64,000 nt of DNA from Escherichia coli (GTDB lineage Bacteria; Pseudomonadota; Gammaproteobacteria; Enterobacterales; Enterobacteriaceae). Where the stretch lies: NCBI RefSeq assembly GCF_024223415.1, contig NZ_CP100500.1. One strand, written 5' to 3'. Positions 45,222 through 52,398 of this stretch are shown here, piece after piece; position 1 is the stretch's first letter; every line of letters begins with the position of its first letter. The notes beneath the pieces were generated by a model. It was not told where the DNA came from, did not search any database, and saw only the letters and a list, made by a program, of their open reading frames with translations. A program made the position numbers and the translations under genes.

Positions 45222-46102
45222 ACACTCCTCGTCAGTATTCTGGCGGCCATTGCACTTAATCGCGGAGACATGCGGTTGAATGCTGTGCCGGCGGCGTTAA
45301 GCTGCCCGGAAACGGTATCCAGAGCACCTGCAATATTTCTTTTGTCCACACCACTCAGCGCAGACTGTGCCTGCTGTATATACGTGGCTGCTTCGCTGGC
45401 TGTTCTGGCCAGACTGATGGCATCGGGCATGGATTCAGAGAGTGCATTAAATGCCGGCACACTTTTCCCCAGAGCGCCGGATATATTACCCAGTCCGCTC
45501 ATCAGTCCCGGCACACGGGTCAGCGCGACAACGGGGTTATCCTTCATTTTCTGCGCCACCCGAACGGCACTGATGGTGGTCTGGAGTACAGACTGCGCCT
45601 GTTTCGCATAGTTGACACCGTTGCGGATGAACTGTGCCCCCCCGGAAGGCGATGGAACGGCACCAGATACGGCCCCGGCACCGGGAACCTGCCTGCGTAT
45701 TGCCGGTGGTTTCAGGGGATTCTTCGGGTCACCGGTGTATTCCCGGAGAGACACGGTTGCGCTGACAGCCAGTACGTTGCCGGTACTGTCAGTCTGCTCG
45801 CTGGTTGCAGTCACATCGGTAATCACGAACCAGGCGCGATAGTCACCGTTGCCGAAGACCAGCGCCAGTGCCTGATGGGCTTTCATGGCTGCCCGAAGTC
45901 TCGCCAGCTCCACGTCGGGCACACAATAATGCTGATGGAAGACCAGACTTATCTGGATTTCGTCCAGCCTGTCGCCGACGAACTGCAGACCGGGCTTACT
46001 CCCGATGCGGGCATGCTCCGCATAATCGACGCCAGACGTGGCCTCGAAGCCGTCCCAGTAGGTAATCAGCTCAAACTCAATATCACCCAGTACGGCAAAC
46101 AT
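45218..46102 (-). CDS. phage tail protein U-like / DNA circulation protein (Mu gp43-like)
   Basis: 294 aa directly downstream of tape measure gene; N-terminus MFAVLGDIEFELITY… gpU-like. Confidence 0.6.
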   Translation of the reverse strand: MFAVLGDIEFELITYWDGFEATSGVDYAEHARIGSKPGLQFVGDRLDEIQISLVFHQHYCVPDVELARLRAAMKAHQALALVFGNGDYRAWFVITDVTATSEQTDSTGNVLAVSATVSLREYTGDPKNPLKPPAIRRQVPGAGAVSGAVPSPSGGAQFIRNGVNYAKQAQSVLQTTISAVRVAQKMKDNPVVALTRVPGLMSGLGNISGALGKSVPAFNALSESMPDAISLARTASEAATYIQQAQSALSGVDKRNIAGALDTVSGQLNAAGTAFNRMSPRLSAMAARILTRSV

Positions 46103-49100
46103 CAGCGGTACTCCTTACGTTGTTTCTGAGCCAGCAGACGCTCCAGCATTTTTTCCAGCTCATGCAGACTCATATTCAGGGCACCAGTCAGTCCTGCAGG
46201 CGCTGTGGTTTCCCTGCCATTGAGGAAAAACTGAGGATTAAAGCTGACCTGGATACCACCAGACGTTCCACCGCCGGTTGCAGCTGCACCACGGCCTGAA
46301 TATCCGGCAGCCAGGATTTCAGGCGAGGGGATACGGGGAATATCCGGTGCCATCTCATTTGCCAGACGTTGCCCTGGTAAAATCGATGCCCGGGTGGAGA
46401 GCGGAATAGCGGGCATGGAAGACAAACTATTGATTACGGCTCCGATCGCATTTTTAGCAGACGACATAAACCCATTGATATCGGGCAACGGCATACTGAA
46501 GCGAACACCTGAAGTGTTATCCCGTATTTCTGGCCCCTGAATGCTCACGGGCATTTTGGGGAGCAGTTCACTGGCCATTCGCTGCCCGGCCAGAGCTGCA
46601 AGCGGAGTAGTCCGCTGCAGGCCAATGGCGGCCCCCTGCGCGATATTGTCGCCAAAGACCATAAACACGCGGCTCGGCGAATGAATGCCCAGCTTTTCGC
46701 TGAACCAGCCACTGATGCTGTCACCCATTCCGGTTACACTGGATTTGAGCGACTCCCATTTGTTTTTGATACCGTTAATCAGACCATCGACAAGATGGCC
46801 ACCGAAGTCGGTAAACTTTGCCGGCAGATCAACACCAAGATATTTCATCGCAGCTGCAAAGGCTTTATAGAGCAGACCTGCCGGCGACCAGTTAATCAGC
46901 AACTTACCAGTTCCCACAATGCCGCCGTTAAAGGCTTCCTGAATGTCAGCCCAGCACTGTTTAAACCAGCTACTGATGCTGTCACCCATTCCGGTTACAC
47001 TGGATTTGAGCGACCCCCATTTGTTTTTGATACCGTTAATCAGACCGTCGACAAGATGGCCACCGAAGTCGGTGAACTTTGCCGGCAGAGCAACGCCGAA
47101 ATATTTCAGCGCAGCTGCAAAGGCTTTATAGAGCAGGCCTGCCGGCGACCAGTTAATCAGCAACTTACCAGTTCCCACAATGCCGCCGTTAAAGGCTTCC
47201 TGAATGTCAGCCCAGCACTGTTTAAACCAGCTACTGATGCTGTCACCCATTCCGGTTACACTGGATTTGAGCGACCCCCATTTGTTTTTGATACCGTTAA
47301 TCAGACCGTCGACAAGATGGCCACCGAAGTCGGTGAACTTTGCCGGCAGAGCAACGCCGAAATATTTCAGCGCAGCTGCAAAGGCTTTATAGAGCAGGCC
47401 TGCCGGCGACCAGTTAATCAGCAACTTACCAGTTCCCACAATGCCGCCGTTAAAGGCTTCCTGAATGTCAGCCCAGCACTGTTTAAACCAGCTACTGATG
47501 CTGTCACCCATTCCGGTTACACTGGATTTGAGCGACCCCCATTTGTTTTTGATACCGTTAATCAGACCGTCGATAAGATGGCCACCGAAGTCGGTGAACT
47601 TTGCCGGCAGAGCAACGCCGAAATATTTCAGCGCAGCTGCAAAGGCTTTATAGAGCAGACCTGCCGGCGACCAGTTAATCAGCAGCTTACCAGTTCCCGC
47701 GATACCGCCGTTAAAGGCTTCCTGAATGTCAGCCCAGCGCTGTTTAAACCAGCCACTGACTGCCCCCCAGTTGCGGTAGATAAGGTAAGCTGCTGCCGCG
47801 ACAGCGGTGATAACGAGACCGATGGGATTCATCATCAGCGCCCGGCCAATCCAGAGAACGGCACGCCCGGCGATCATAATGCCGCGAACCAGTCCCCCGG
47901 AGAGCACACCACCCAGTGTTCTGACTCCTCTGGCGACGGCACCAAAGCCGGTCACCAACCAGCGAAGCTTACCGCCTTCCCCCAGTGCAAGCGTCAGACG
48001 AAGCCAGTTGGTCCGGAGTAAAACAGCAGTTTTCCAGACGTTCACAAAGGGGGAAATAAGGAGATTCAGCCCCAGTTTGAGACCAATAGTCGCTATCTTA
48101 ATCGCAAGGAGCGCACTGATGAGCTTAAAAGCCCCACTGACAAATTGCGGGTGAGTCGCCACCCAGTGTTTTGCCCCCTGAATGACTGGGATCAGCTCCT
48201 GAGTCAGAGAAATAAAAGAAGGGGCGAGCTGATCGCCCAGCGTAATAGCCAGATCGCGACTGCTGACCATAAGCGCTTTAGTGGCTTCAAGGGGAGATTT
48301 CAGCCGCTGATCGTAAGCACTGGCAAGCAAATCGTTATCCGCAGCCCTGAGAGCACCGGCACGGATCTCGCGATATCTGTCCATGTTGGCCAGCATCGGG
48401 CGGATAAATGCCATGACCTGCATATCCGCGAACATATCGCCCAGACCAAAGTTTTTCGCCAGAGCCTGAAGTGCCTCATCTCTTGCCGTATCATTCTTTA
48501 TTTTCATGGCGGATTTGAAGCCGGCCAGCGCTTCGGGGCTTTTGGCATTGAGGTAACGTTCTATAACACTCAACATCCCTTCAATCGGAGAGATCCCCGC
48601 AGCCTTATAACTCGCAACAGAACCCTGCAAATCAATACCCAGATCAGCAAACTGTTTCTGAGTATCGCGGGCAAAAATTTTGGTAAGAAAGTTTTTAAAA
48701 TTATTGGCTGCTTCGTCGGTGGAGCCCGCACCGATTTTTGCTACCTGGAGACTGGCCCCGATTTCAGCAACAGCCTCTTTTCCACTGGCAATACCCGCCA
48801 TCATTGGGGCCAGGGACTGCATCCACTTGACCTGATCCGGGATTTCAAATGACCCCTGGTCACCGGCATAAGCCATAATATTCTGGACGGCACTAAAATC
48901 TCTGGCGGCACCTTTCAGGGAGTTTTGCCAGACTGCGGCCACTTTTGCCCAGTCCTGAGATGACGTGCGTGTTGCCGTTGCCGCGCGGGCAATATCCGGC
49001 ATCAGAAAACCGATATCTGACAAGTTATCAATATTGTCGCTGATGAGCGAACCCACCGCCTCCTGCAGTTCATCCTGATACTGATTGTATTTTAGCGCCC

Positions 49101-49575
49101 AGCCTTTTATCTGTCCGGCAAGTGCATCCCGCGTTTTATTGTCATATTTTGCGGTGATCGACATATCAATCATTTTGTCCTGAAAAGACATGGACTGCTG
49201 AACGGCAGGGGAAACCGTATGATAAACAGTCTGTGCCATGCCATACGCTTCAATCCCCTGACCATACAGCGCCATGCGGTTAGCTTTCAGCGCATCACTG
49301 GTGGCTGATGCCGCTGACAGACGGCGCTGCTGGCGCTCAATTTGCTCCATGGTGCGGCTTACCCGCAGCAGCTCGCTGTTGAGATGCTGCATCCGGGAAG
49401 AGCCCAGTTGACCATAACGTTCTGTTGCACGGGTTAAAGCGTTCTGACGTTCCTGCAGGCGGCGTGAGGTATCGCTCAGGGAATCAAGCGCACGGCGGGT
49501 ACCGCTCATTGCAGAACGGAATGTGCTGCCAATCATCCCGCCGATAACAACGCCGACTGAAAACTGTCCCGACAT
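46102..49575 (-). CDS. tail tape measure protein with 87-aa internal tandem repeats
   Basis: 1158 aa from ATG 49573-49575 (GGAGG RBS 8 nt upstream); coiled-coil N-terminus, TM-like segments, repeats WFKQCWADIQEAFNGGIVGTGKLLINW…. Confidence 0.85.
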   Translation of the reverse strand: MSGQFSVGVVIGGMIGSTFRSAMSGTRRALDSLSDTSRRLQERQNALTRATERYGQLGSSRMQHLNSELLRVSRTMEQIERQQRRLSAASATSDALKANRMALYGQGIEAYGMAQTVYHTVSPAVQQSMSFQDKMIDMSITAKYDNKTRDALAGQIKGWALKYNQYQDELQEAVGSLISDNIDNLSDIGFLMPDIARAATATRTSSQDWAKVAAVWQNSLKGAARDFSAVQNIMAYAGDQGSFEIPDQVKWMQSLAPMMAGIASGKEAVAEIGASLQVAKIGAGSTDEAANNFKNFLTKIFARDTQKQFADLGIDLQGSVASYKAAGISPIEGMLSVIERYLNAKSPEALAGFKSAMKIKNDTARDEALQALAKNFGLGDMFADMQVMAFIRPMLANMDRYREIRAGALRAADNDLLASAYDQRLKSPLEATKALMVSSRDLAITLGDQLAPSFISLTQELIPVIQGAKHWVATHPQFVSGAFKLISALLAIKIATIGLKLGLNLLISPFVNVWKTAVLLRTNWLRLTLALGEGGKLRWLVTGFGAVARGVRTLGGVLSGGLVRGIMIAGRAVLWIGRALMMNPIGLVITAVAAAAYLIYRNWGAVSGWFKQRWADIQEAFNGGIAGTGKLLINWSPAGLLYKAFAAALKYFGVALPAKFTDFGGHLIDGLINGIKNKWGSLKSSVTGMGDSISSWFKQCWADIQEAFNGGIVGTGKLLINWSPAGLLYKAFAAALKYFGVALPAKFTDFGGHLVDGLINGIKNKWGSLKSSVTGMGDSISSWFKQCWADIQEAFNGGIVGTGKLLINWSPAGLLYKAFAAALKYFGVALPAKFTDFGGHLVDGLINGIKNKWGSLKSSVTGMGDSISSWFKQCWADIQEAFNGGIVGTGKLLINWSPAGLLYKAFAAAMKYLGVDLPAKFTDFGGHLVDGLINGIKNKWESLKSSVTGMGDSISGWFSEKLGIHSPSRVFMVFGDNIAQGAAIGLQRTTPLAALAGQRMASELLPKMPVSIQGPEIRDNTSGVRFSMPLPDINGFMSSAKNAIGAVINSLSSMPAIPLSTRASILPGQRLANEMAPDIPRIPSPEILAAGYSGRGAAATGGGTSGGIQVSFNPQFFLNGRETTAPAGLTGALNMSLHELEKMLERLLAQKQRKEYR
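46700..47760. repeat. 261-bp tandem repeat, about 4 copies, inside tape measure gene
   Basis: Near-identical 87-aa protein repeats; plus-strand shadow ORFs recur at 258-261 bp spacing (46685, 46943, 47204, 47465). Confidence 0.8.
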
Positions 49576-49650: not shown

Positions 49651-49908
49651 CTACGATTTGTCGCCGTACTCGCTTTTGATTTGCTCTTCAGCCTGCTCCA
49701 GCCACATCTCCAGATCGTCAGTATCGAGGGCATCAATCTCCCCCGGCTGAAACCGGAACCATCTCGCCAGCAGCCCCTGCGCCTGCGTCAGCGCCCTGGT
49801 TGCTCTCACCCATCCCCGTGATGAGCTGAAATCGTTTCTGTAACTGCAGGTAATCAGCCAGATCCATATTGTCGAGATCTTCCGGGAGAAGACCAGTACT
49901 GCGGGCAA
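49651..49908 (-). CDS. frameshift extension ORF of tail assembly chaperone (GT/E'-like)
   Basis: Overlaps 49733-50068 in +1/-2 frame; C-terminal …EIDALDTDDLEMWLEQAEEQIKSEYGDKS ends 75 bp before tape measure start; G5 run at overlap end. Confidence 0.4.
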   Translation of the reverse strand: MPAVLVFSRKISTIWIWLITCSYRNDFSSSRGWVRATRALTQAQGLLARWFRFQPGEIDALDTDDLEMWLEQAEEQIKSEYGDKS

Positions 49909-50068
49909 TCAGCGGTTCGTCCCAGTCTGCCGGGTTTTTGCTGATTTTGCGCACCTGCTTCAGGTCTTTTACCGTCAGGCGTTTCAGTTCAACCTGCTCA
50001 ATTCTGGTGCCTGCAGCAGTGGTGAAGGGATAAGACAATTTAAAAGTATCGGATGGGGTCTGTGACAT
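49733..50068 (-). CDS. tail assembly chaperone (G/E-like)
   Basis: 111 aa acidic protein immediately upstream of tape measure gene; overlapped by ORF 49651-49908 in another frame. Confidence 0.55.
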   Translation of the reverse strand: MSQTPSDTFKLSYPFTTAAGTRIEQVELKRLTVKDLKQVRKISKNPADWDEPLIARSTGLLPEDLDNMDLADYLQLQKRFQLITGMGESNQGADAGAGAAGEMVPVSAGGD

Positions 50069-50165: not shown

Positions 50166-50447
50166 TCAGCAAGTGCGAAAACCCTTGCAGTTACGCAGGA
50201 AAGCGATGAGAAGCGTCTTTCCCTCAGATTTGCCGGTGCCGGAGAACCAGTGGTCAGGCGGCTCCCATGCTTCAATCAAATCGGCCAGTTTGCGGGCCTT
50301 TGAACGTGTGCAGTCAATCGGGTCATTCGTTTTCTGTGTATTAAACAGCGTTTCAACCCCGGGAATATCCAGGATTGCAAACCACGTACCGTTTGACATG
50401 CCCAGTGACGCACAGCGCCCCCCTTTGTCAGTCAGTTCAACGCTCAC
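50166..50447 (-). CDS. hypothetical phage protein
   Basis: 93 aa ORF between tube and chaperone genes, co-oriented. Confidence 0.45.
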   Translation of the reverse strand: MSVELTDKGGRCASLGMSNGTWFAILDIPGVETLFNTQKTNDPIDCTRSKARKLADLIEAWEPPDHWFSGTGKSEGKTLLIAFLRNCKGFRTC

Positions 50448-50449
50448 CG

Positions 50450-50971
50450 TCAGCCTCCGATATTGATACGGTAGTCAGTCAGTTGATCAACGCCACCGAC
50501 GCGGAAGATGTTAGCCAGGTAGTCCAGTTGCAGCAGCTCTTCACCATCCAGTACCTGTCTGATATACGTGCAGGTGAAGCTACTGGAGAACTCGGCGTTC
50601 TCGTGCTGTTTGAACGTCCCCAGCGGGTTCTTCTTGAACATAATCGTCAGGAAGGTGACCAGCGGGATTTCGTCAATCAGCCCCTGCGAGCTGTAGCGCT
50701 GGACGCTGGAGCGACACTGCAGTGCCAGAGACCTGTACGGGTTCGCGACAGACAGCATCGCATCGCGGTAAAAGCTGTTCCATTTGATTTCGCCTTCCAG
50801 TTTGTCAAAACCAGCCGGGAGTTCCACCTTACCCACCATCCCCAGCGCCTTGTGTTCCTGCATAATCATGGAGACATCGGGGAGTTTAACTTCCTCAGCC
50901 CGTCCCAGCAGGTTAGTACCATCCAGATAGATGTTGGCATTCGTGATGCGGTTTATCTCAATCTTTGACAT
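50450..50971 (-). CDS. major tail tube protein
   Basis: 173 aa directly downstream of sheath gene (stop/start overlap), size and synteny of contractile-tail tube proteins. Confidence 0.8.
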   Translation of the reverse strand: MSKIEINRITNANIYLDGTNLLGRAEEVKLPDVSMIMQEHKALGMVGKVELPAGFDKLEGEIKWNSFYRDAMLSVANPYRSLALQCRSSVQRYSSQGLIDEIPLVTFLTIMFKKNPLGTFKQHENAEFSSSFTCTYIRQVLDGEELLQLDYLANIFRVGGVDQLTDYRINIGG

Positions 50972-52398
50972 CAGTTGCCCCCTTTCAGGGTTAACAGGTA
51001 TTCCGAGGTGATCTCAGTCTCATACGTCAGTCGCTCCAGCGGTGGCGGCGGCGTGTATTTGTAGCTCAGCAACAGGTGACCGGCTGCCAGTTCCGTCTCC
51101 GGATTACGGGCCGGATCAAACCAGCAGTTGAAACCCAGCAGCGCACCATCACTAATCATCTTTCGACCGTAGGCGTTGACCGACTCCGTCAGTGCATCAA
51201 TCAGCGCCTGAGTAATCGGCATGTCGATGTACTGCTGACTGAAGTAACGAATGGACTCGTTGATCACATCACCGGTGCGGCGAACGTTCTCAAAGTTACG
51301 CATATGGGTGACCGTTGGCCATGCTGCCGTCCGGTTACCCCACAGACGAAGGCCGCTGCCATAACTGCTGAATACCGTGGTGATCCCCTGTTCGTTAAGC
51401 AGGTTCACCTCACTCTGCGGGTCATCAATCATCGCGGACAGCTGGCGCTCCACACCGGTGATCCCCAGAATCTCCTGATTGGAGGACGACCACCAGTAGC
51501 CCTTGTCCAGATCGACTCTGGCACGCAGACCTGCTGCACGCTGGCTGAGCGGCTCCAGACGCTCCGTGTTTGTCACCGGGTCATATACCTTCACATGCGG
51601 ATAGCACAGACGGACGCGGTCGGAGCTGGTATTGAAGTTAATGGTGCCTTCCGGGCCACGACCTGCCAGAGCCTGTGCAAAGGTGGTACCGACAGGCGCA
51701 TCAATGTAGGTTACCGCGCCCAGCTTCTCTGTCATGGCGATAAGCTCAACTGCGACACTCTTCTGGGTGCAGAACACCGGCGCAATCAGAATTTTGGCAA
51801 AATAGCCGTACAGGTTGAAGCTGTCGTTAAGCAGCTTCATGCCGGTTCGGTTTCCGGCGCTGTTCACCCCGCCGATGATGTCCGCCGCAGTCACCTTCGA
51901 CGGGTCCGCGTACTCATAGCTCACCTTCACGCTGCCACTGGCCTCAATAGCCTTGCCCAGGTTCGTGAGCACACCCGTCTGCGCATCAACACGGTAGTCC
52001 GTGTTCGCCGTGTGGGTGGTGCTGCCTTCACTGTTTTTCACCACCACATTAGCGACAACCGGATGCGCCAGTCTGGCCTGCCCTGTCGATTTGTCAAAGG
52101 TAACCACTTCACCCTGGATCGCCGTTTTATGTTTCGCCGGGTCGAGGACGTTAATGACCAGAACGGTGCCTGCACCATGGTCATAAATCGCATCCAGCGC
52201 CTGCGGAATGGTAAAGCCGGTGAACTGGCTGCCAAATGCCGCTGCGTCTTTCTCAGACAGGCACTGTACCAGCGTATTGACGTCCCCCATCGGGGCGGTA
52301 CCAATCAGGCCAATAACGGCAGATTTCACCGTTTTAACCGGGCGGGCTCCGTTTTCCACCTCAATGGTTTCGACGCCATGCAGATAGTTAGCTGCCAT
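50971..52398 (-). CDS. tail sheath protein
   Basis: 475 aa, synteny and size. Confidence 0.85.
   Translation of the reverse strand: MAANYLHGVETIEVENGARPVKTVKSAVIGLIGTAPMGDVNTLVQCLSEKDAAAFGSQFTGFTIPQALDAIYDHGAGTVLVINVLDPAKHKTAIQGEVVTFDKSTGQARLAHPVVANVVVKNSEGSTTHTANTDYRVDAQTGVLTNLGKAIEASGSVKVSYEYADPSKVTAADIIGGVNSAGNRTGMKLLNDSFNLYGYFAKILIAPVFCTQKSVAVELIAMTEKLGAVTYIDAPVGTTFAQALAGRGPEGTINFNTSSDRVRLCYPHVKVYDPVTNTERLEPLSQRAAGLRARVDLDKGYWWSSSNQEILGITGVERQLSAMIDDPQSEVNLLNEQGITTVFSSYGSGLRLWGNRTAAWPTVTHMRNFENVRRTGDVINESIRYFSQQYIDMPITQALIDALTESVNAYGRKMISDGALLGFNCWFDPARNPETELAAGHLLLSYKYTPPPPLERLTYETEITSEYLLTLKGGN

Follow-up and report, generated by a model that had tools for sequence, protein, structure and literature searches.

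Within a stretch of 64,000 nucleotides (nt) of Escherichia coli DNA (RefSeq assembly GCF_024223415.1, contig NZ_CP100500.1; hereafter the window), a BcepMu-like (Bcepmuvirus) myovirus prophage carries a tail assembly chaperone gene whose 3′ end is overlapped by an open reading frame (ORF) in the +1 (equivalently -2) frame. We propose, with a probability of about 0.68 and on the strength of sequence comparison, that this chaperone pair is expressed through a +1 shift of tRNA-Phe from UUU to UUC, which would generate a fusion protein of 138 amino acids (aa). A programmed frameshift at this locus is well supported because the first ORF belongs to the Phage_TAC_7 family, the +1-frame peptide shares homology with the E' portion of the phage P2 chaperone, and the pair occupies the position between the tail tube and tape measure genes; the overlap arrangement is more than chance. 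The shift most likely occurs at a conserved UUU_C about 87 bases upstream of a run of five G residues (the G5 run) that an earlier sequence-only reading had put forward as the candidate slip site. Tail chaperone frameshifting is a known kind of system, and the new part is the UUU_C +1 site for BcepMu-like phages, no description of which appeared in the literature that we searched with incomplete coverage; the authors of the KS10 study found no frameshift site in their Mu-like phage.

Both coding parts of the locus could be identified by homology. The chaperone ORF lies on the minus strand at 49733..50068 (ATG at 50068, TGA at 49735-49733), and its 111-aa product matches Pfam PF10109, Phage_TAC_7 ('E, or 41 or 14'), over residues 8-81 (E = 3.5e-22, 78.7 bits against a cut-off of 25 bits), as well as phrog_166, 'tail protein' (E = 3e-33). 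The overlapping ORF ends on the same strand with a TAG at 49653-49651, leaving 75 nt between its end (49651) and the ATG of the tape measure gene (49575). Its last 52 aa match phrog_8286 (E = 8e-34), and the window extension has a weak similarity to PF06528, Phage_P2_GpE, that falls under the 23-bit cut-off of that family (E = 0.0016, 18.3 bits). When we aligned 31 diverse extensions of the family (alignment A3, built for this analysis), 18 of the 31 matched PF06528, with a best E value of 3.3e-10, and the A3 profile aligned in hhalign with residues 101-136 of P2 gpE+E', its E' part, with a probability of 94.4% (E = 9e-8). The E'/GpE-like core delimited by PF06528, the family hits and hhalign corresponds to fusion residues 100-132 (49672..49770, minus strand). 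The same domain order is seen in P2 gpE+E', where PF10109 (residues 7-85) is followed by PF06528 (residues 104-139). An NCBIfam scan of the fusion and of the extension returned no match, and a PDB sequence search returned no relative. Because PF10109 is found in the first ORF and the extension shows E' homology, the locus is a homologue of the P2 E/E+E' tail assembly chaperone pair, with the 111-aa ORF as the counterpart of P2 gpE and BcepMu gp41. The placement of the pair between the tail tube and tape measure genes is that required of the P2 E/E+E' type. The sequence-only reading had recognized a G/GT-type tail chaperone arrangement here, which is borne out by PF10109, the E' homology and the tube-tape measure position and can be named more precisely as of P2 E/E+E' type; its coordinates for both ORFs, for the 75-bp distance to the tape measure start and for the G5 run just before the frame-0 stop (49744-49740) were also verified on the minus strand.

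The +1-frame extension is conserved well beyond close relatives of the prophage. When viral contigs were scanned with only the chaperone as query (alignment A1), 80 loci were recovered, and in 80 of 80 the +1 frame stays open past the frame-0 stop for a further 55-151 nt, or 82-151 nt when one locus cut by its contig end (L026) is left out. A second set, seeded with the GC-rich BcepMu, Pseudomonas phages Komp_PAO1_1 and Bise, and Ralstonia phage YO107_2 (alignment A2), comprised 80 loci, 76 of which matched a hidden Markov model of the E' peptide built here; the peptide lies in the +1 frame in 72 of these and in the -1 frame in 4. The conserved +1 peptide, [QE]A..LLARWFRFQP[GS]E[IL]D.L..[DE][LF]..WL..A..QI, is far better kept than the frame-0 tail, and BcepMu has the same arrangement of gp41 plus a +1 ORF. 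Lack of conservation of the downstream ORF in related phages had been named in advance as a finding that would speak against a frameshift, and the ORF proved to be conserved. We infer that the chaperone and E' parts are joined by ribosomal frameshifting.

Selection changes frame close to the proposed site. We calculated Nei-Gojobori ratios of nonsynonymous to synonymous differences (pN/pS, omega) in sliding windows across 52 distinct ungapped relatives, with positions taken relative to the codon for Phe-80. Upstream of this codon (from -105 nt on), omega is 0.21-0.29 in frame 0 and 1.0-2.5 in the +1 frame; downstream of it, frame-0 values rise to 0.81-1.43 in the first 60 nt and to as much as 3.1 over the E' core, and +1-frame values fall to 0.45-0.57 and 0.08-0.25 in the same two segments. 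Purifying selection thus crosses over from frame 0 to the +1 frame within ~15 nt of Phe-80, a codon placed 87 nt before the G5 run.

These patterns bear directly on the suggestion that ribosomes shift on the G5 run itself (49740..49744, minus strand), either by -2 as in Mu or by +1 on GGG_GGA just before the frame-0 stop, where the 111-aa ORF ends in frame 0 with GCC GGG GGA GAT TGA. Such a shift would give a product reading ...VPVSAG(G)EIDALD..., with a predicted junction FQLITGMGESNQGADAGAGAAGEMVPVSAG(G)EIDALD... and without GWVR or ALTQAQGLLAR. The window and 37 fetched loci carry the run in frame, the GGG_G of the run permits perfect re-pairing, and the verified -2 site of Mu is likewise a G5 run. 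About half of the relatives, however, terminate frame 0 before the run is reached: a TAG in this frame precedes the run by seven codons in KP12, Phi06_2974 B and numerous relatives from E. coli and IMG/VR (82-87% DNA identity), which keep an identical +1 peptide. Its first G is replaced by T, A or C (TGGGG and AGGGG are seen), which is a synonymous change at the third base of a +1-frame Pro codon, and distant relatives read GCC GAG TGA or GCC CAG TGA at this position. From GCT GGC to the G5 run, every substitution is nonsynonymous in frame 0 and synonymous in the +1 frame (GAG/AAG, ATG/GTG, CCG/CAG/TAG, GTT/ATT), and among the 14 sequences sharing the stop position of the window, variable columns in the 36 nt before the run are distributed 1, 1 and 6 over the three +1 codon positions (p = 0.044, with small numbers). 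A product of a shift on the run would also enter the +1 frame too late to include LLARWFRFQP, the best conserved half of the E' domain, which is encoded upstream of the run; the phase of the run is GGG GGA in the window and CGG GGG in Mu; and database 'fusions' at the run are single-base homopolymer errors of noisy assemblies. Because frame 0 often stops early and the run varies synonymously, the shift must be placed upstream of it, and we consider a shift on the G5 run very improbable, with by-product slippage there possible to some extent. On sequence grounds, the simplest account of the run is that it spells the +1-frame codons CCG GGG GAG (Pro-Gly-Glu), a caution against taking the homopolymer closest to a stop for the slip site by default.

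The candidate that we favor, AAA CGA TTT C (49828..49837, minus strand; UUU as P-site codon at 49831-49829 and C at 49828), is kept without synonymous variation. Among the 52 distinct ungapped relatives, none of which was left out for having TTC, the Phe-80 codon is TTT in 52 of 52 and the next codon always begins with C (CAG, CAA, CAT or CGT); Arg-79 is encoded by CGA in 51 of 51 Arg codons and Lys-78 by AAA in 43 of 43 Lys codons. Other conserved frame-0 codons do vary synonymously, such as the Arg at -50 (CGC, CGT or CGG) and also Asp, Tyr, Glu and Leu codons. In the GC-rich set, TTT_C is found in frame 0 at the conserved Phe, within the permitted window, in 60 of 61 distinct +1-type loci, with TTT as the site codon at all 61 TTT_C occurrences compared with 34% TTT among the other Phe codons of these loci. 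Taken together, 126 of 128 distinct +1-type loci, from genomes with a GC content of 45-68%, encode the conserved Phe that closes the chaperone domain as TTT with a C directly after it. The codon preceding TTT_C in these 126 loci takes 13 forms (CGA in 79, GTG in 13, TCC in 10, TGG in 8, GCC in 6, and others), and the codon following TTT is CAG in 59, CGC in 23, CAA in 22 and CGG in 15, with CGT, CAT and CTG also present, so that the C is constant although both the preceding codon and the next amino acid (Q, R, H or L) differ between loci. Across the 126 loci, the nearest upstream +1-frame stop begins at -11 and the nearest downstream frame-0 stop at +18; if a single homologous site is assumed, the shift therefore falls within ~29 nt that contain TTT_C. 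The frame-0 UUU followed by a pyrimidine and the constraint beyond the protein code are both features expected of a P-site UUU_Y slip. We detected no conserved RNA structure after the site (RNAalifold on 31 diverse sequences, -1.2 kcal/mol, no consensus helix), an absence that fits a P-site +1 slip.

Several observations count against this assignment or limit how far it can be pressed. Over the first ~45 nt after TTT there is no clear third-position periodicity in either frame, and selection alone therefore does not fix the site to a codon. The localization rests on the invariance of TTT_C and on the intersection of the permitted windows, assuming one homologous site in all lineages, and the relatives are phylogenetically related (their chaperones form about 18 clusters at 70% identity), so that locus counts overstate independence. 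One +1-type locus (L170), the sole exception to TTT_C among the 61 distinct loci of the GC-rich set, carries Leu where the others have the conserved Phe, and lacks TTT_C. The slow A-site codon or Shine-Dalgarno stimulator of a P-site UUU_Y site was not found: the frame-0 A-site codons after UUU (CAG, CAA, CGC and CGG) are not rare, no upstream Shine-Dalgarno-like or purine-rich element is conserved among the relatives, and no known stimulator accounts for efficiency. As a separate observation, the exceptional locus (IMG/VR 3300003320_000475, 901-1440) carries a tandemly duplicated TAC_7 domain in one 178-aa ORF.

The uninformative periodicity leaves some room for a shift at another point of the linker that connects TTT with the E' core, for instance a +1 shift at GCA_GGG_GCT (49776-49768), with sites differing by lineage. 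Perfect +1 re-pairing would be allowed there by GGG_G, and the 21-nt stretch GCAGGCGCAGGGGCTGCTGGC is almost invariant in close relatives. The linker site itself is not conserved, however, reading GGG_C in relatives of the L009 type and GGC AAT GGC in those of the Salmonella type, and two loci (L090 and L091) have a frame-0 stop upstream of GCA_GGG_G. Depending on the relative, the frame-0 stop is located between +18 and +108 nt after TTT; many GC-rich relatives terminate frame 0 at 18-36 nt beyond TTT, before the linker site is reached. The first ~45 nt after Phe-80 behave as a loose linker in which one Trp and one Leu of the +1 frame are nevertheless conserved across the family, both upstream of the near-invariant stretch. 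We regard a linker shift as unlikely.

It is also conceivable that no frameshift occurs and that the E'-like ORF is translated alone, from an internal start or by termination-reinitiation. In some E. coli genomes the NCBI Prokaryotic Genome Annotation Pipeline (PGAP) calls a stand-alone 46-aa 'GpE family phage tail protein', phrog_8286 consists of stand-alone gene calls of ~54 aa, and some relatives have an ATG just before the E' core (QAMALLARW, TLMQAQG). Against this, no start codon for the extension is conserved among the relatives, the window having ACG where others have ATG, and the CTG start chosen by PGAP lacks a convincing Shine-Dalgarno sequence. Independent initiation would leave unexplained why no +1-frame stop interrupts the stretch back to TTT in any of the 126 loci, and +1-frame constraint and conserved residues begin shortly after TTT. 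In the window the frame-0 stop lies inside the E' core, so that reinitiation there could not yield the whole domain, and P2, a homologous system, produces its E' part solely within the E+E' fusion (annotation; PMC3931495). Separate translation of the E'-like ORF is accordingly quite improbable in our estimation.

The prophage itself is widespread. The window DNA is 100% identical to a prophage of E. coli strain LR-31, 640 of the 5,426 complete E. coli genomes (about 12%), strains of sequence type 131 (ST131) among them, carry the prophage, and the closest phage record is Escherichia phage PhiKM (99.3% identity, classified as Bcepmuvirus). The element is a resident prophage, and some E. coli copies have a frame-0 nonsense codon in the chaperone gene, which raises the alternative that the element is defective and the overlap a decaying remnant without current function in this strain. 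Purifying selection acts, though, in both frames, in the expected segments and in many lineages, the tail module is wholly intact in the window, and the near-identical PhiKM has been deposited as a phage; decay has in our view only a marginal chance of being the explanation. The nonsense codons include a CAG-to-TAG change at chaperone codon 91 (L007, 900-905), with a frame-0 nonsense codon also in L029 and L030, and in L090 and L091 frame 0 stops after codon 88. As these codons lie downstream of UUU_C, the fusion could still be made from such copies, with only the Gly/Ala-rich tail of the short form lost.

Under the UUU_C model, most ribosomes would remain in frame 0 and produce the 111-aa short form, consisting of the Phage_TAC_7 domain and a poorly constrained Gly/Ala-rich C-terminal tail (residues 81-111, 49736..49828 on the minus strand) whose coding sequence overlaps the extension. 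A minority would shift by +1 with tRNA-Phe (anticodon GAA) in the P site on the UUU of codon 80 (49831-49829), where the tRNA could re-pair on the overlapping UUC and exchange a G:U wobble for a G:C pair; reading would resume at AGC (49827) and end at TAG (49651). The extension, SSSRGWVRATRALTQAQGLLARWFRFQPGEIDALDTDDLEMWLEQAEEQIKSEYGDKS (49651..49827, minus strand; 58 codons plus TAG), would then form the C terminus of a 138-aa fusion, ...LQKRF-SSSRGWVRATRALTQAQGLLARWFRFQPGEIDALDTDDLEMWLEQAEEQIKSEYGDKS, with a chaperone domain, a linker of ~20 aa and the conserved E'/GpE domain, and the junction peptides predicted by the model are ...LQKR / FSSSR / GWVR / ATR / ALTQAQGLLAR / WFR / FQPGEIDALDTDDLEMWLEQAEEQIK. 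We infer both the direction of the shift, +1 rather than -2, and the exact codon; a -2 event at Phe-80 is implausible, as it would require UUU pairing with GAU. Transcriptional slippage on T3 or G5 was considered and set aside, since runs of this length are not known to support it.

E. coli has only one tRNA-Phe isoacceptor, with the anticodon GAA, and UUU-pyrimidine sites are reportedly prone to +1 shifting in this species (Schwartz and Curran, 1997). CGA is decoded through an I:A wobble, and it is a matter of speculation that the invariant E-site CGA helps the shift in enterobacterial members. Shift efficiency is probably low, because there is no conserved structure, Shine-Dalgarno-like element or rare A-site codon. 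By analogy, an efficiency of a few percent would be expected, and a low value would suit a chaperone pair, given the 30:1 product ratio of lambda (PMC5009743) and the Mu frameshift of about 2% (PMC3498833). If the lambda analogy holds, both forms would coat the tape measure protein, the E' domain alone would recruit tube subunits, and neither form would stay in the virion.

Among known systems the closest is P2, in which gpE and gpE+E' are reportedly produced by a programmed -1 frameshift (Christie et al., 2002). Conservation of tail chaperone frameshifting is likewise said to have been described by Xu, Hendrix and Duda in 2004, together with verification of a -2 shift for Mu gp41/Mu_56. The P2 and window pairs share homology in both domains, the tube-tape measure position, a shift site at a Phe codon on the C-terminal edge of TAC_7, a second ORF without its own start and the lack of a downstream RNA structure. 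They differ in that P2 shifts by -1 at T_TTT_TTG (PMC3931495; PMC3091744), whereas the window extension is in the +1 frame without a T6G heptamer, and in that a single-tRNA P-site slip is proposed here in place of the tandem slip of P2. The sequence-only reading had called the frame relation, which is not -1, unusual; the remark is fair but not new, as -1, -2 and +1 shifts have all been recorded in tail assembly chaperone genes (PMC5009743). The comparison with the Mu gp41 region that it suggested holds for the frame relation (+1 equals -2), as well as for genomic position and function, and not for the G-run site or the protein family. Mu gp41 is a distant relative by PF10109 (23.8 bits, just under the cut-off) and belongs to PF23746, Gp41_Mu (E = 8e-34), whereas the window protein matches PF10109 only; the Mu extension is not recognizably E'-like; and Mu slips on CGG_GGG_C, whereas the G5 run of the window differs in phase, lacks conservation and is often located beyond the stop. 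Lambda gpG/gpGT offers a functional equivalent, for which sequence similarity is not expected: there too, two chaperones share an N terminus, a low-level frameshift adds the extension, and the genes lie just upstream of the tape measure gene, but the shift is -1 at G_GGA_AAG.

Outside tail genes, the nearest parallel is the proven +1 site of influenza A PA-X, UUU_CGU (PMC3498833), in the context UCC_UUU_CGU. As proposed here, a C immediately 3′ of a P-site UUU would allow tRNA-Phe to re-pair on UUC, and the putative shift region of BcepMu reads UCC_UUU_CGC. PA-X differs from the window locus in that the A-site codon at our site is usually of the CAG, CAA or CGC type and not rare, in that the host is bacterial, and in that the function concerns a phage assembly ratio. 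The prfB gene of E. coli (RF2, CUU_UGA) likewise provides a bacterial programmed +1 P-site slip, one that depends on a stop codon in the A site and on a Shine-Dalgarno element upstream, features that are neither present nor conserved at the window locus.

The chaperone/E' family also includes members in the -1 frame (L150-L156 from IMG/VR and L094 from Pasteurella phage AFS-2018a). One of these, L150, has the canonical lambda G/T heptamer G_GGA_AAG just before the frame-0 stop and an A, not a C, after the Phe codon, and from their sequences L150-L156 appear to use G_GGA_AAG with the -1 frame. We lean, at somewhat better than even odds, towards a wider view in which the BcepMu-like myoviruses of Enterobacteriaceae, Burkholderia, Ralstonia and Pseudomonas share a +1 signal that is little more than UUU_C, with no stop or rare codon, Shine-Dalgarno element or RNA structure and with CGA and AAA invariant in enterobacterial members. 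If this is true, one chaperone family would have found several recoding answers to the problem of product ratio, UUU_C being joined by the -1 shift on T6G in P2, the -1 shift on G_GGA_AAG and, more distantly, the -2 shift of Mu. To our knowledge, few natural bacterial +1 programmed frameshift sites have been described, mainly prfB and a handful of phage genes. A site found in more than 120 distinct loci without an obvious stimulator would, if the proposal is correct, offer a compact test system for P-site slippage of tRNA-Phe and for E-site effects, such as those of CGA.

The proposed fusion is absent from current annotation. RefSeq annotates the 111-aa product alone, under the name 'phage tail assembly protein', PGAP in a few E. 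coli genomes adds the 46-aa protein from its CTG start, and no record joining both ORFs was found among the RefSeq/PGAP E. coli genomes or the GenBank entries of PhiKM, KP12 and BcepMu. PGAP thus omits the extension or starts it at CTG, and several E. coli copies with a frame-0 nonsense codon are labelled as pseudogenes ('internal stop') despite being fusion-capable under our model. For BcepMu (L005, AY539836, 4859-5364), GenBank names gp42 as the 'lambda G' analogue and gp43 as its slippage product; by homology, gp41 is the chaperone and the gp42 ORF the +1-frame E' extension of gp41. The BcepMu gp43 ORF overlaps a 200-aa ORF on the opposite strand.

A public protein collection contains 138-aa in-frame 'fusions' of both ORFs (proteins P0001-P0009; loci L178-L183). 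Their junctions fall at G, A or GGG homopolymers, and their sources are short Logan contigs with single-base gaps relative to the window; one of them (L181) differs from the window by 0 mismatches and 3 gaps over 2.6 kb. A G4 run was found in 0 of the 177 loci fetched before the fusion check. We therefore rejected these proteins as natural in-frame fusions of the 'Rosetta stone' kind and regard them as homopolymer-indel artefacts of error-prone assemblies, which could mislead annotation by homology.

The chaperone pair lies in a tail module whose gene order on the minus strand is sheath, tube, 93-aa ORF, chaperone, tape measure and gpU-like. The tail sheath gene (50971-52398) matches PF04984 and PF17482, and the tail tube gene (50450..50971; PF04985, E = 2.6e-53) lies upstream of the chaperone gene. 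The 93-aa ORF between the tube and chaperone genes (50166-50447) is similar to phrog_1239, a family of unknown function (E = 6e-48), and weakly so to DUF7739; enterobacterial relatives keep the ORF, but BcepMu, in which the gap between tube and gp41 is only ~120 nt, lacks it. A GC-rich terminator-like hairpin, AGGGGCTCCGGCCCCT followed by TCTTCTT (50159-50144, minus strand), separates this ORF from the chaperone gene and sits within what is expected to be a single late operon. The gap from the extension stop to the tape measure start contains a perfect 9-bp hairpin, ACAGCCGCC-AGT-GGCGGCTGT (49645-49625, minus strand), with no T-run after it; close relatives retain a hairpin there with changed stem and loop sequences. 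The next gene downstream encodes the tape measure protein (46102..49575; PF10145, E = 5e-20) and begins with an ATG at 49575-49573, the same start as in the RefSeq annotation of strain LR-31; beyond it lies a P2 gpU-like gene (46102-45218). The tape measure gene contains a 261-bp unit repeated 4.0 times in tandem with 97% identity (46703-47759, minus strand), equivalent to four 87-aa repeats. Its length in relatives is 3474, 2691 or 2466 nt, and the difference between 3474 and 2691 is exactly 3 x 261, which suggests a tail-length polymorphism driven by repeat copy number.

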